Shown here: positions 33,787 to 41,377 of the stretch, piece by piece
How the letters are laid out: every line of letters starts with the position of its first letter
Position numbering within the stretch: position 1 is the first letter of the stretch
Origin: Escherichia phage phiEco32
Sequence record: NC_010324.1
Strand: one strand, 5' to 3'
DNA: 64,000 bases
Program-made: the position numbers and the translations under genes
Notes under the pieces: generated by a model
What the model saw: the letters and a program-made list of their open reading frames with translations, nothing else
Told to the model about the DNA's origin: nothing
Database searches by the model: none

Positions 33787-35272
<1,486 letters not shown>

Positions 35273-35533: not shown

Positions 35534-35792
35534 AATGCATCTCTTTATAAACGGTTTCCGTGTTCTTCTTCCAGTTAGATAAACCGGTAAGAACCCTCTG
35601 AGCAACTTCATCAGCTGCTCTATTTCTTTCAATCTCTAACTCTTGTTGATGTTTCTCTTTATCCAGATTACTGCTGTCTGTTTGATATTCGTTAAACTTC
35701 ATACCACCAAAGAATACAAGAGCTGAGAAAACGATAAACCCTAAGTTATCACTTAACGTGTTTTGCATGTTGTCTCCAACGAAAAAAGCCAC
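35418..35792 (-). CDS. i-spanin (Rz-like inner-membrane spanin)
   Basis: N-terminal TM LGFIVFSALVFFGGM followed by charged helical periplasmic domain; overlapping architecture with the o-spanin. Confidence 0.6.
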   Translation of the reverse strand: MAFFVGDNMQNTLSDNLGFIVFSALVFFGGMKFNEYQTDSSNLDKEKHQQELEIERNRAADEVAQRVLTGLSNWKKNTETVYKEMHYEKTKPVFYNVCASDEYVSLFNERQQQAINALTNKPKS

Positions 35793-35825
35793 CCGGAGGT
35801 GGCTAAGCTATAACAAGGAGAGTTA

Positions 35826-36572
35826 TTAGAATGGGCTATCGTTGTCGTCTTCGTAAGTAGAAGCAGGCTCTTTATCAATCGTAGGGATTGAAGGAGTAGC
35901 TTCTTTCTGCTCTGTTTCAGAAGCACGAGTAATTTCACGACCAGCCAGAGGCATGTTCTTAGCGTCATTAGCTTGAGTAAGCAGGTTGCGCTGGAACGGG
36001 AACATCAGTTGATATGATGCTACGTTCTCATCGGTTTCAGCATACGGTTCGAAGAATACCAGAGGACTACGAGCTTCACCAACTGCTGCACGATATTTGG
36101 TTGGGATTGGAGAAATGGTCTTGATGGAGTTTTTAACTTCACCAGCTTTGTTAGTGTAAGAGTTAACCAGAATGTTAACAGGCTGGCCTAACAGAACATC
36201 CTTGAACCAAGACAGATCGCCTTTCAGTGCTTGAATACTTGGGTCAATCATCTTGCAAAGATCAAGAATACCAGAGTTCTTAGCTCGTGGGTTTACATCA
36301 TAGCTCTTGAACTGGCAAGCCGGACGTGGTTCTAATGCCTTACCATCGGAATCTTTACCAGTAGCATCAACACCAATCAGCTCGAAAGCCAAATCCATAC
36401 GGAAAGCCGGATTCTTAGGAGTCACTGCTTTGGTCTTCGGGTCAATCCAAGGGTCACGATTGTGAACACCCAAACCTACTACACGAACGATACGTGCTTC
36501 GTACTCACCATCAGGGATTACATCGTAGTTGGATTTACGGGAAGCAGTTGCGATAGTTGGAATCATAGACAT
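35826..36572 (-). CDS. putative ssDNA-binding protein (T7 gp2.5-like)
   Basis: 248 aa with acidic C-terminal tail ending ...YEDDNDSPF (terminal Phe as in gp2.5-type SSBs); position in the replication module. Confidence 0.45.
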   Translation of the reverse strand: MSMIPTIATASRKSNYDVIPDGEYEARIVRVVGLGVHNRDPWIDPKTKAVTPKNPAFRMDLAFELIGVDATGKDSDGKALEPRPACQFKSYDVNPRAKNSGILDLCKMIDPSIQALKGDLSWFKDVLLGQPVNILVNSYTNKAGEVKNSIKTISPIPTKYRAAVGEARSPLVFFEPYAETDENVASYQLMFPFQRNLLTQANDAKNMPLAGREITRASETEQKEATPSIPTIDKEPASTYEDDNDSPF

Positions 36573-36631
36573 ATTTTAATTTCCTTATTTAATTTGAAAG
36601 ATTGTTGCTCTCTTTGAGCGGTTATGTATAG

Positions 36632-36640
36632 TATACATTA
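36632..36640 (-). promoter_or_regulatory. TAATGTATA motif (minus orientation) upstream of the SSB gene
   Basis: Plus-strand tatacatta; ~60 nt upstream of the start at 36572; part of a near-palindrome with a plus-oriented TTATGTATA at 36622-36630. Confidence 0.4.
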
Positions 36641-36703
36641 CGCTTATACCGATAAGAGTACTATATAATATAAGTATCTTTGGTAGTAGATATATCACAC
36701 TAG

Positions 36704-36712
36704 TAATGTATA
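36704..36712 (+). promoter_or_regulatory. TAATGTATA motif in plus orientation inside the 416-bp AT-rich intergenic region
   Basis: Exact 9-mer; the only downstream genes are on the opposite strand, so a promoter here would make antisense or noncoding RNA. Confidence 0.3.
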
Positions 36713-36988
36713 TATTGTATAGCTGATAAAGTTATTGCAGGCTTGTATATTGGGCAATTCATAGAATCCCTTGCAAGTACCGAAGGGCAGGAGCCACCTG
36801 CGAGATAAAAATAGAGAATTAAGGAATCCTTGATTTAGGTTGTAGGGACTCCTAGGGACTTTGATTCTCTATTTAAAAGAATAATAATTACTTATTACCT
36901 AAATAATTAACTAACTTACTTAAACCAAATTCAATTAGAATAGATAAAAAGATTATTCCTAAGAAAGCTAAGAAGTAAATAATATAAG

Positions 36989-37288
36989 TTACCATTCAAG
37001 TAAACCTTTAAAGTTAGTTTGTTCTACTATCCTCTGATAACGAAGATTAGAATCAGCTTGTTTCTTTAACATCTCATTATATTGATCTCTGATAGAGTCT
37101 TTATAAACTACAGGTTCTTTAAATACTGAGATCTTCTTTTTCTCAGAGTTAGATAGTACATCCATCACAGGTAAGATCTCCGAGAAGGGACAGTGATAAC
37201 AAACGAGACTGCTCATCGCTATACAGTTGATCAATCTCTTCTTTAAGTTTTGCCAACTCAATGAAATTGATAAGTTGACCATGTTCAA
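36989..37288 (-). CDS. hypothetical protein (start probably an internal Met near 37165)
   Basis: ORF track; overlaps the upstream ORF in a different frame. Confidence 0.4.
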   Translation of the reverse strand: MNMVNLSISLSWQNLKKRLINCIAMSSLVCYHCPFSEILPVMDVLSNSEKKKISVFKEPVVYKDSIRDQYNEMLKKQADSNLRYQRIVEQTNFKGLLEW

Positions 37289-37364
37289 GACAGTCTGTTT
37301 TTAGTATAAATAAAACTTCAGCGTCTGTTGAATCTTCACTTGAATATTTATCAATGTATTCCAT
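37149..37364 (-). CDS. hypothetical acidic protein (71 aa)
   Basis: ORF track. Confidence 0.45.
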   Translation of the reverse strand: MEYIDKYSSEDSTDAEVLFILKTDCLEHGQLINFIELAKLKEEIDQLYSDEQSRLLSLSLLGDLTCDGCTI

Positions 37365-37379
37365 TTTTACTCCTATTAA

Positions 37380-37523
37380 TTATGACCAAGATTTAACTTT
37401 TACTTCGACGTATGTTTTAACTTCACCTTTCAAGACTTCCTGAGAAGCATTTGCACTTTCCTCAGAGTGATGTACAACGGTGATCTCTTTCTTTCCAATC
37501 TTATAAGTGTGAATCCAAATCAT
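37380..37523 (-). CDS. small hypothetical protein (47 aa)
   Basis: Not in the ORF track (<60 aa); ATG overlaps the upstream stop as ATGA; SD GAGGAAG 5 nt upstream. Confidence 0.4.
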   Translation of the reverse strand: MIWIHTYKIGKKEITVVHHSEESANASQEVLKGEVKTYVEVKVKSWS

Positions 37524-39532: not shown

Positions 39533-41377
39533 TTAGTGTGTATGCATCCAGTTAAGTCCAATCTGACAATCAGATGCCAGAGGACATTCCATGTTCAGAT
39601 ACTCGCCAGCTTTCTTAACACAAAGCTCAGTGTGCTCTTTGAGTTTCTGTACATCATTACGGTTTACTGAGAATTGACCTTCATCGTGCATATCAATTAC
39701 CTTAGCACAACGAACCTTATCTTTCTCAATCCACTTGTTAAGGAACATCATAGCATATTTCATAACAACAGCACCAGCACATTGCAGGAGTGTGTTAAGG
39801 GCTTTATGAACCATAACCTTACCAGTGGCATCCCGTCTCATTGTAATCTTACGACCATCAACTCCAATCAAGTATCCTTGAGCAGCTTTCTCTGTCATAC
39901 GATCGATGAGGATTGCAATACATGGGTTCTCTGCTAAGAAACGTGCTCGCATCACTGAACCTTCGTCAGCCCCACCACCTACAATTGAACCAAGCTTAGC
40001 ATCGCCAGCACCGTAGTTGAATGCATAGATAAATGTCTTAGCGTTGTCACGAGTAGGAAGACCAGCAAGTTTCTGGTTGTGGGAGTGGATATCACCTTCA
40101 AGGAGAATATCACGATACATAATAGCAGAAGCTAAACCACGTTCTGCCAGAGCTTTCTTAGCTGGGTTGTTCTCTTCAATTGCCTCAGCAAGCATATCCC
40201 TACACTCTTTAATGAGGTAGTGAGCGAGCATACGAAGTTCCAGTCCAGAACCATCATACCCTAAGAATACTTCTTTACCAGCGGGTATGTAATATTTGTA
40301 AGCGCCTACAGGTTTGTCTTTCTTCCCCGGCTTACCTTTCTCGTAAATTACGTTAGTACCTTTTCGTATATAACAACCATCAGGAACAACGTTAGTAATA
40401 ACGAAAGGACGAGAGTGATCACTGTCTGAGTTATAGTCAGACTCAAACAGACTGCGACACTCGTGACCAAACAAACCACGGGAGGGAATATTAACCACGA
40501 TACGATGTTTGAATCGAAAAGTTGGCGTAGCGCAGCTGTTAGCTTCTGCCGAAAGTTTACCATCTTCGCGTTCCTTTGCTATGAGTCCACTGATAAGACC
40601 TAGCCTGTGAGCCGCTACAACGCGTCTCTTAAGCAAACTTCCAACACTCCCTAGTTCACCCCCTAGCCCTTCTTCAAGAGTCTCCTCGAGGTTTGTAGGA
40701 GCTGTAGGCCACTTGTTTGATGTGGCTAATGCTTTCTTAATCTCATCAAACGTTACAGGATTACGGCGATTAGGGTTCAATCCCAAACCAAACACGTAAG
40801 CTTTCATGTAGTTCTTAGTTTTAAACCTGAAGTGCTTTTCTAAGAACTTCTTAATATCAGCGTCAACCATCTCGGCTGTCTGCTTTTGCTTAGCATTGCC
40901 TCGCATCCAAGCAGTATACCATGCTTGGTATGTTCCATACTTTCTCATATCTTTCTTAATTTCGAAAGTATTCCAAGGCTTCTTAGATACGTTAAACTCT
41001 GGAGGAAGAAAGCCCTCATCCATAAGAGCTTCTTTAACTCGTGCATCCTTCGATGGGTCAAAGTCTACATATTCGACACAGGTGAAAGCTCCACCAATGT
41101 CTTCTCTCTTCAGTCCAACCCTATCACAATAAGCTTGAGGCCACTTCTGCAAAGCCCCTGACTTCTTAAATGGCTTCATGTAAGTAGAGCCATCTAATCT
41201 CATCTTAGGTAAGAGAGGAATCAACTCTCTGTCAATATTAACAATAATCTCTTTAAGGAGGTGAACATACCACCGAGCATTTCTTCGGTTGAAACTCACT
41301 CCGTGCTTTGCTTGCTTAGAGATTATATCAGCGACAGTCATCTCTGTCAAAAATGGAAGAGCGTCCGGGTTGCTCAC
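39533..41377 (-). CDS. family A DNA polymerase, polymerase domain only
   Basis: Motif A LGYDGSGLELRMLAHY, motif B RDNAKTFIYAFNYGAG, motif C IDMHDEGQF; no 3'-5' exonuclease motifs in this ORF. Confidence 0.85.
   Translation of the reverse strand: MSNPDALPFLTEMTVADIISKQAKHGVSFNRRNARWYVHLLKEIIVNIDRELIPLLPKMRLDGSTYMKPFKKSGALQKWPQAYCDRVGLKREDIGGAFTCVEYVDFDPSKDARVKEALMDEGFLPPEFNVSKKPWNTFEIKKDMRKYGTYQAWYTAWMRGNAKQKQTAEMVDADIKKFLEKHFRFKTKNYMKAYVFGLGLNPNRRNPVTFDEIKKALATSNKWPTAPTNLEETLEEGLGGELGSVGSLLKRRVVAAHRLGLISGLIAKEREDGKLSAEANSCATPTFRFKHRIVVNIPSRGLFGHECRSLFESDYNSDSDHSRPFVITNVVPDGCYIRKGTNVIYEKGKPGKKDKPVGAYKYYIPAGKEVFLGYDGSGLELRMLAHYLIKECRDMLAEAIEENNPAKKALAERGLASAIMYRDILLEGDIHSHNQKLAGLPTRDNAKTFIYAFNYGAGDAKLGSIVGGGADEGSVMRARFLAENPCIAILIDRMTEKAAQGYLIGVDGRKITMRRDATGKVMVHKALNTLLQCAGAVVMKYAMMFLNKWIEKDKVRCAKVIDMHDEGQFSVNRNDVQKLKEHTELCVKKAGEYLNMECPLASDCQIGLNWMHTH

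Follow-up and report, generated by a model that had tools for sequence, protein, structure and literature searches.

P40 and a putative opposed gp36-class promoter with a predicted structured RNA in the largest intergenic gap of an Escherichia phage phiEco32 sequence

Why would a phage keep a complete promoter-like sequence that faces away from every gene around it? The question arises in the 64,000-nucleotide stretch of Escherichia phage phiEco32 analysed here (sequence record NC_010324.1; the window, below), in which a 416-bp gap (36573-36988) lies within a block of minus-strand genes, directly upstream of a gene named in relatives for a single-stranded DNA-binding protein (SSB). An earlier note, made from the sequence alone, had read this gap as a regulatory hub with opposed promoter motifs, possibly with antisense transcription across early genes, or as a replication origin. 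The idea of a hub with opposed promoters has held up well: one of the two motifs is the known promoter P40, and the other, here called Pas, has all the sequence features of promoters for the phage sigma factor gp36 and is conserved. The gap is best explained as a back-to-back pair of gp36 promoters, P40 reading leftward and Pas reading rightward, and Pas would direct the synthesis of a short structured non-coding RNA.

A known leftward and a putative rightward promoter

Phages of the phiEco32 type encode their own sigma factor, gp36, which recognises tAATGTAtA, with AATGTA centred at -11.5 and transcription starting 6-8 nt downstream; six gp36 promoters have been published (P6, P13, P26, P40, P58 and P68). 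The exact nonamer TAATGTATA occurs five times in the window against 0.54 expected, a count reached in none of 100 shuffles, while its one-mismatch versions are found at chance frequency (20 against 17 expected). By parallel with a table published for phage SU10, the four exact sites other than Pas fall where the equivalents of P13, P26, P40 and P58 would be expected. Together with two one-mismatch sites, these make seven gp36-type sites, and every one of the seven carries a TTrrkA-like hexamer at -39..-34, always with A at -34 and a purine at -37: TTGGGA at the P6-type one-mismatch site TAATGTAGA (1677), TTAAGA at the P13-type exact site (9101), ATAAGA at the P26-type exact site (26014), ATAGTA at the exact site of P40 (36640, minus strand), TTAGCA at the P58-type exact site (42937/42945), and TTGGTA both at the P68 one-mismatch site AAATGTATA (46862/46870, minus strand) and at the exact site of Pas (36704, plus strand). 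This bipartite consensus goes beyond the 'single-element' description of older papers. A cryo-EM structure of the open complex formed on P68 (gp79/gp36) shows the carboxy-terminal domain of gp36 in contact with -37G and the T opposite -34A, and P68 mutations at these contacts abolish transcription.

Relatives were collected by searching phage records with positions 35800-37400, which returned 97 matches at 80-99% identity, all of them Escherichia or Shigella podoviruses of the phiEco32 group (Kuravirus and sister genera of the Gordonclarkvirinae). Comparison with them and with the literature identifies the leftward promoter. The near-palindrome TTATGTATA-G-TATACATTA that had been reported at 36622-36640 is present, and its right arm is TAATGTATA read on the minus strand (36640-36632). 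The SU10 supplementary table lists, between coding sequences CDS37 and CDS38, the sequence 'aagcgtaatgtatactatacataaccgctcaaagagagcaa', which is the exact minus strand of 36643-36603 here. That match, taken with the homology of the adjoining gene to phiEco32 gene 40, makes the right arm of the palindrome the -10-like element of P40 (36632..36640, minus strand), identical to the SU10 sequence and invariant in 16 of 16 relatives. An ATAGTA at 36664-36659 (minus strand), with A at both -34 and -37, forms its -35-like element. P40 is listed among the published gp36-dependent promoters, and its transcription by the gp36 holoenzyme in phiEco32, with a start 6-8 nt downstream of the element, has been reported; the element and its flanks agree base for base with phiEco32 P40, in the same place upstream of the same gene, and we found no difference between the two. 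P40 is an already known gp36 middle promoter, which drives the SSB-sigma operon.

Placed by the 6-8 nt rule, the predicted P40 start is A36625. The near-palindrome as a whole (36622..36640) consists of the P40 -10 element and a partial inverted copy lying over this start site (TGTATA-N-TATACA). Relatives retain this inverted copy, with 1-3 nt as spacer; in those of the SU7 type, the left arm TTATGTATA does not persist as a promoter-like nonamer. The predicted 5' untranslated region (UTR) of the P40 transcript (36573..36625, minus strand) contains a small hairpin, GCUC-AAAGA-GAGC (36619-36607), and the ribosome-binding site (RBS) AAGGAA (36586-36581), and the leader sequence AACCGCTCAAAGAGAGCAACAATCTT is nearly invariant in 16 relatives.

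On the plus strand, the exact TAATGTATA reported at 36704-36712 is likewise present and forms the -10-like element of Pas. Numbered by alignment to P68, Pas has its -35 region, TTGGTAGTAGATAT, at 36680..36693, with TTGGTA at -39..-34 (36680-85), G at -37 and A at -34, and its predicted start is A36719. The 14-mer TTGGTAGTAGATAT occurs only twice in the 64 kb, at Pas and upstream of P68 (46894-46881, minus strand), and in both places it is separated from the -10-like element by 10 nt. The similarity between Pas and P68 extends to the start site, taking in the TATA extension and GTA at -2..+1, and is the sole similarity of the locus to anywhere else in the window; in its -10-like element Pas is one base nearer to the consensus than P68 (TAATGTATA compared with AAATGTATA). 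The two differ in their surroundings, as P68 precedes a gene and points along its operon, whereas Pas, whose activity is predicted, opposes the local genes and has no open reading frame (ORF) after it. Published gp36 promoters are found upstream of an expressed middle or late gene, as P40 is with the SSB gene; Pas faces away from all local genes, and no conserved ORF was found downstream of it on the plus strand. A tandem near-copy of the element, TATTGTATA at 36713-36721, is not conserved in relatives and was taken as a chance occurrence.

Conservation separates the elements of Pas from the bases between them. In an alignment of 24 sequences, 8 of the 9 columns of the -10-like element and 10 of the 14 columns of the -35 region show no variation, while the spacer has no invariant column among its 10 and yet keeps a fixed length. 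To judge from the alignment, this is the classic footprint of a functional promoter. The composite motif GGTAGTA-N15-TAATGTATA, antisense to the SSB gene, is found in 24 of 25 loci of the Kuravirus clade; the exception, metagenomic contig L027 (ERZ1034915 NODE-75), has TAATATATA, a G>A change at -11, and may be either a sequencing error or a natural Pas-down mutant at a position contacted by gp36. The distance between P40 and Pas differs by 146 bp in relatives with an insertion between them, which indicates that the two promoters are independent units and not halves of one site. On its sequence features and conservation, Pas would be a second complete gp36-class promoter in this gap.

The 146-bp insertion itself lies between the Pas -35 element and P40 in nine relatives (including L006, at 1501-1974, L013, L016, L024-L027 and L029). 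Within it is an ORF for a basic peptide of 47 aa, frameshifted in L016, with a CUACC-UUUC-GGUAG hairpin at its end.

The predicted RNA downstream of Pas

The sequence downstream of Pas shows no coding potential among the relatives, which differ there by indels of 1-2 nt and by exchange of a middle module for an unrelated one. What it has instead is a predicted and apparently conserved structure. The predicted non-coding RNA (36719..36876, plus strand) would be about 155 nt long here and about 185 nt in relatives with the alternative module, and the best reading of the Pas transcript is a gp36-dependent structured antisense or non-coding RNA, putative in its existence, start, ends and function.

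The transcript would open with a 5'-terminal hairpin, H1 (AUAGCU-GAUAA-AGUUAU; 36719..36735, plus strand), that begins at the predicted +1. In all sequence types (AUAGCU.., AUAGUU.., AUAGAU.., AGAGUU..) H1 starts with the first nucleotide, at a constant distance from the nonamer, and this register, fixed to the promoter element, would be hard to explain if the minus strand were the functional one. Its stem shows compensatory changes across relatives: one pair is C-G in 16 sequences, U-A in 3 and A-U in 1, a second is U-A in 18 and G-C in 2, and a third is G-C in 10 and G.U in 10, a G.U that would be A.C on the minus strand. The covariation comes from two pairs with changes on both sides (6 cells), a score that none of 500 shuffles reached; the remaining 30 pairs are almost constant. 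In E. coli, RNAs are known to be protected from 5'-end-dependent decay by a hairpin placed right at the 5' terminus.

Next in the alignments comes a variable middle module (36740..36781, plus strand), of type A here and replaced in other relatives by a longer, unrelated type B with a 7-bp hairpin of its own. The types of H1, of the middle module and of the 3' domain occur independently, in all combinations, which marks the region as highly mosaic.

The 3' domain is, by contrast with this variable module, nearly invariant. It spans 95 nt (36780..36874, plus strand) and comprises a small hairpin, an A-rich linker and a long hairpin, H5; across 24 sequences, 83 of its 95 columns never change. Pairwise identity in the domain stands at 96.7%, whereas synonymous third positions of the SSB gene reach 80% (63% in the most divergent pairs), so that the domain changes about six times more slowly than the synonymous sites of the neighbouring gene. 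The small hairpin, GCAGG-AGCCA-CCUGC (36787-36801), has an alternative pairing with UUGCAGG at 36735-41. H5 (36809-36874) has a basal stem of 16 bp on the plus strand, two of them G.U, compared with 11 bp on the minus strand. Four fixed G.U pairs of the plus strand would be A.C on the minus strand. Predicted folds are likewise more stable on the plus strand, at -45.8 against -35.3 kcal/mol (z-scores of -2.45 and -1.53), as are the alifold consensus folds, at -39.0 against -29.2, with a structure conservation index of 0.87 against 0.78.

H5 also contains the direct repeat TAGGGACT-CC-TAGGGACT that had been noticed earlier, with copies at 36843-36850 and 36853-36860. The word is not enriched in the window (3 occurrences against 2.1 expected; 29 of 100 shuffles reach 3), and its tandem arrangement matters only through its conservation in relatives. 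The UCCU at 36827-36830 can pair with one copy or the other, so that two folds are possible; in relatives of the Paul/ECBP2 type both copies are one G shorter (AGGACT-CCT-AGGACT), and the predicted minimum-energy fold of H5 differs between the two genome types.

Searches for known counterparts were negative. Rfam gave no match at the gathering threshold over the whole window, and a permissive search gave only matches with E>1 at the locus. A DUF2815 RNA candidate in the SSB leader was rejected: it scored 15.2 bits against a threshold of 41.2 and aligned over the RBS only, and the SSB gene product has no Pfam or DUF2815 match. As a check for host mimicry, the RNA sequence was compared with 5,426 E. 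coli genomes without a match, and the conserved domain has no paralogue elsewhere in the window. In the accessible literature we found nothing on Pas, or on non-coding or antisense RNA in Kuravirus.

The course of events that we favour can be set out as follows. At the middle stage of infection the gp36 holoenzyme, stimulated by gp79, would take over transcription; P40 would fire leftward from 36625 and Pas rightward from A36719. Since Pas matches the middle promoter P68, its RNA would be expected at that stage. The product would be the structured non-coding RNA of about 155 nt, with the invariant 3' domain as its functional core, and it would act as RNA. It might do so in cis, as an antisense RNA to read-through transcripts that enter the P40 region from the upstream operon; to these the RNA is perfectly complementary, as it is not to the P40 transcript. 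Alternatively, the conserved 3' domain might bind a protein or another RNA. We do not rank these functions against each other, and judge it somewhat probable that Pas is an active promoter that makes a functional RNA. Of the earlier proposal of antisense transcription across early genes, the antisense part stands as a plausible reading and the word early does not: the opposed genes lie between P58 and P40, which makes them middle genes. The apparently conserved structure would speak for a short RNA of defined extent more than for antisense transcription over a long stretch.

Counter-transcript and cis-antisense RNAs such as ColE1 RNA I, R1 CopA, lambda OOP and P22 sar have clear intrinsic terminators and a defined target leader or gene. 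The predicted Pas RNA resembles them in being small, folded and untranslated, in having its own promoter facing an oncoming transcript, and in forming stem-loops on both complementary strands. It differs from them in its undefined 3' end and in its overlap, which is with the 3' UTR or read-through of the upstream operon and not with the P40 transcript.

A functional RNA weighed against other readings

Several observations weigh against a functional Pas RNA. Pas is absent from the three published lists of gp36 promoters that were consulted. The contig with the G->A change at Pas -11, L027, nevertheless keeps its 3' domain intact. The terminator scan detected no canonical terminator after the RNA on the plus strand; of the U-runs, the better one (AUUUUUAU) comes after the long hairpin as read on the minus strand. 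Helices other than H1 are invariant and show no covariation, the 3' domain being too invariant for a covariation test, and single substitutions that create G.U pairs on the plus strand are exactly as frequent (3) as those that create C.A pairs (3). A screen for targets in trans among 156 phage translation-initiation regions yielded a best duplex within the range of shuffled sequences. Finally, recombination in this mosaic region, rather than selection, could lie behind part of the near-identity of the 3' domain.

The U-run is central to another account of the 95-nt block, in which it would act on the minus strand as a terminator, processing site or insulator that ends the upstream operon before P40, with Pas secondary, as a roadblock or by-product. 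Read in that direction, the long hairpin has an 11-bp AU-rich stem with the invariant AUUUUUAU after it and is bordered, as bidirectional terminators are, by an A-tract and a U-tract; the block begins 15-25 nt past the upstream stop codon in every genome type, and it is intact in L027 despite the mutated Pas. We nonetheless consider this account rather unlikely. The consensus terminator scan was negative: scans for terminators and sigma-70 promoters gave no more than chance would, and neither strand of the region yielded a terminator. Efficient intrinsic terminators look different from an AU-rich stem with 2 G-C pairs that encloses 44 nt and has a U5 run on the minus strand only. The fold of the minus strand is also weaker and does not keep H1, a conserved and complete P68-type promoter with a 5'-terminal hairpin would be left unexplained, and the 47-aa minus-strand ORF that some relatives have between the block and P40 would, if expressed, require read-through across the block. 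More improbable still is a site acting at the DNA level, where the two TAGGGACT copies, one helical turn apart, and the CCTAGG palindrome embedded in them would bind a phage protein, for example to regulate P40 or Pas. The 10-bp period of the repeat here would suit such a site, as would the joint change of both copies in the other genome type and the invariance of loops and linkers, a pattern more usual for recognition of a specific sequence than for structure by itself; yet the period is 9 bp in that other genome type, the repeat is 130-150 bp away from Pas and over 200 bp away from P40, distances that differ by 26-146 bp from relative to relative, no protein emerged as a candidate to bind it, and the covariation in H1 would go unexplained. 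That the plus-strand TAATGTATA and the repeats are mere accidents of an AT-rich spacer might be suggested by the 29% GC of the region, by the chance frequency of one-mismatch nonamers and by the lack of enrichment of TAGGGACT, and we give this virtually no credence. The exact nonamer is enriched 10-fold, with its other four sites at the expected equivalents of P13, P26, P40 and P58, both Pas elements are conserved while the spacer between them varies, and the 14-mer is common only to P68; the shared 14-mer and the conservation contradict chance and exclude it.

The remaining alternative, an origin of replication, draws on the same promoter. The Pas transcript, which would appear only after the phage sigma has been made, could form a downstream RNA-DNA hybrid and prime the leading strand for the phage Pol A-type polymerase, after the models of T4 oriF/oriG, the T7 primary origin and the structured pre-primer RNA II of ColE1. 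A promoter without a gene among replication genes (the SSB gene, 35826-36572, and the polymerase ORF, 39533-41377) would fit such a role, and a T4-type origin is built from just a middle promoter and an element rich in AT, some 100 bp altogether, in which R-loop formation needs no specific sequence. The MotA-dependent T4 origins resemble Pas in having a middle-stage phage promoter amid replication genes whose transcript need not encode anything, and gp79-gp36 has been compared to the AsiA-MotA pair. A tract of 18.8% GC comes directly after the long hairpin, the matching flank in the other genome type is likewise AT-rich, and no Kuravirus origin is described in the searchable literature. Against this, a T4 R-loop that needs no specific sequence leaves the 95-nt invariant structured domain unexplained. 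The stretch immediately downstream of Pas is AT-rich only from +1 to +25; the next ~130 nt are structured and 41% GC, and the tract of 18.8% GC begins at about +158. There are only two TAGGGACT copies and no other repeat family in the region, hence no iteron array. GC skew has no extremum at 36.7 kb and changes sign only at ~30.5 kb, the boundary of late and middle genes; skew follows the direction of transcription here, which makes this a weak test. The element is also missing from distant relatives that share the synteny and the replication neighbourhood (SSB, 5'-3' exonuclease). The proposal of an origin beside the SSB gene thus found no positive support, with no skew signal at 36.7 kb, no iterons and only 54-75 bp upstream of the SSB gene in distant relatives, and we regard a transcription-primed origin at Pas as rather unlikely. 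More speculative, and in our view quite doubtful, is a specific version of it: Pas and its transcript as the Kuravirus origin, a sigma-gated pre-primer like ColE1 RNA II in a lytic phage, in which the alternative folds of H5 decide whether the hybrid persists at the AT-rich tract. A functional RNA made from Pas remains the reading that we prefer.

Neighbourhood, distribution and meaning

The extent of the gap needs one correction. When ORFs from 40 aa upwards are counted, 36573-36988 is exactly the interval between two of them, the largest of its kind in the window, as had been noted, and at 29.3% GC against 42.5% for the whole window it is indeed AT-rich; it is not, however, wholly noncoding. 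Its most AT-rich part, 36877-36988 (18.8% GC), is mostly taken up by a small ORF for a 35-aa hydrophobic peptide (MVTYIIYFLAFLGIIFLSILIEFGLSKLVNYLGNK; 36888..36995, minus strand), a coding sequence annotated in relatives, whose frame is kept in 13 loci with variable columns at codon positions 1/2/3 of 7/1/8. As the rightmost 108 bp belong to this ORF, the true noncoding stretch is 36573-36887, or 315 bp. The peptide looks like a single transmembrane segment, the start of its ORF (ATGGTAA) overlaps the stop of the upstream gene, and the ORF is absent from genomes of the Paul/XT18/Bas87/Bas88/TH34/ECBP2 type.

Up to ~30.5 kb of the window the large ORFs are on the plus strand, and beyond that point on the minus strand, an arrangement that agrees with the published phiEco32-type layout, in which the late genes converge with the middle and early genes. 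The SSB-like gene (35826..36572, minus strand; 248 aa) is, by the ORF list and the annotation of relatives, the phiEco32 gene 40 homologue and the first gene of the P40 operon; it corresponds to phi32_40, SU10_37 and ECBP2_0035. Its product has no Pfam match at E<=0.01, and the SSB name comes solely from annotations in a few GenBank records, among them that of phage Ptacy1479, where an 'ssDNA-binding protein' is followed three genes downstream by an 'RNA polymerase sigma-H factor'. The phage sigma gene, the gp36 homologue, is at 34166-34813 here, three genes beyond the SSB gene, and its product has a weak Sigma70_r2 match in Pfam. The ORF at 39533-41377 is annotated as DNA polymerase in relatives. 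Directly after the SSB gene, within the supposed P40 operon and ahead of the sigma gene, lies a canonical terminator-like hairpin, AGCCACC-TCCG-GGTGGCT, with a T-run (35787-35804, minus strand). A scan for transfer RNA and transfer-messenger RNA genes found none.

An ORF of ~489 bp for a calcineurin-like phosphoesterase that most relatives carry is absent at 37141-37149 of the window (the junction corresponds to L001 4344-4832). A leftover 99-aa ORF with a TTG start (36989-37288, minus strand) has at its end the last ~54 aa of the phosphoesterase that phage Paul encodes in full length, and in SU10-type genomes the gene is already split into ORFs of 167 and 54 aa. Genes for HNH or homing endonucleases are inserted within ~1-2 kb upstream of the locus in YF01, LorandFenyves_Bas91 and XT18; such insertions in several relatives point to the neighbourhood as a hotspot for insertions and module exchange.

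The region is carried by 97 of 97 records with an SSB gene at least 80% identical. An SSB search of IMG/VR added four close and three distant loci, and a pattern scan of metagenomes six further close relatives, along with one chance match (L023). The element was not found in the three distant IMG/VR loci, where the SSB is 67-70% identical and the ~150 bp upstream of its gene hold TAATGGATA and a different hairpin. These contigs (L020-L022, 82-90 kb) have TAATGGATA and a conserved GCATAT...ATATGC hairpin at ~1340-1500, upstream of the SSB gene, and TAATGGATA may be a variant promoter for a sigma factor of their own. In a Crifsvirus, Proteus phage Privateer and Aeromonas phage LAh_8 the order SSB-sigma-exonuclease is kept, with only 54-75 bp upstream of the SSB gene. 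Its absence from distant relatives makes the element an innovation of the E. coli Kuravirus clade.

P40 was already known; new with respect to the accessible literature are Pas and its predicted RNA, both of known kinds. The phage phiEco32 is a model for the replacement of the host sigma factor by a phage, and its map has been described as six gp36 promoters, all of them before genes. If our reading is true, a conserved seventh promoter with a structured non-coding RNA would add an RNA layer to the phiEco32 programme. As Pas shares the -35 and -10 elements of P68, it would be a ready-made test substrate, and the locus would be a candidate for two questions, how the SSB-sigma operon is insulated from upstream transcription and where replication starts. 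Phages of this group (SU10, ES17, myPSH) are used in therapy cocktails, and a conserved non-coding element present in all 97 sequenced relatives would be both a useful marker and a site to avoid in engineering.

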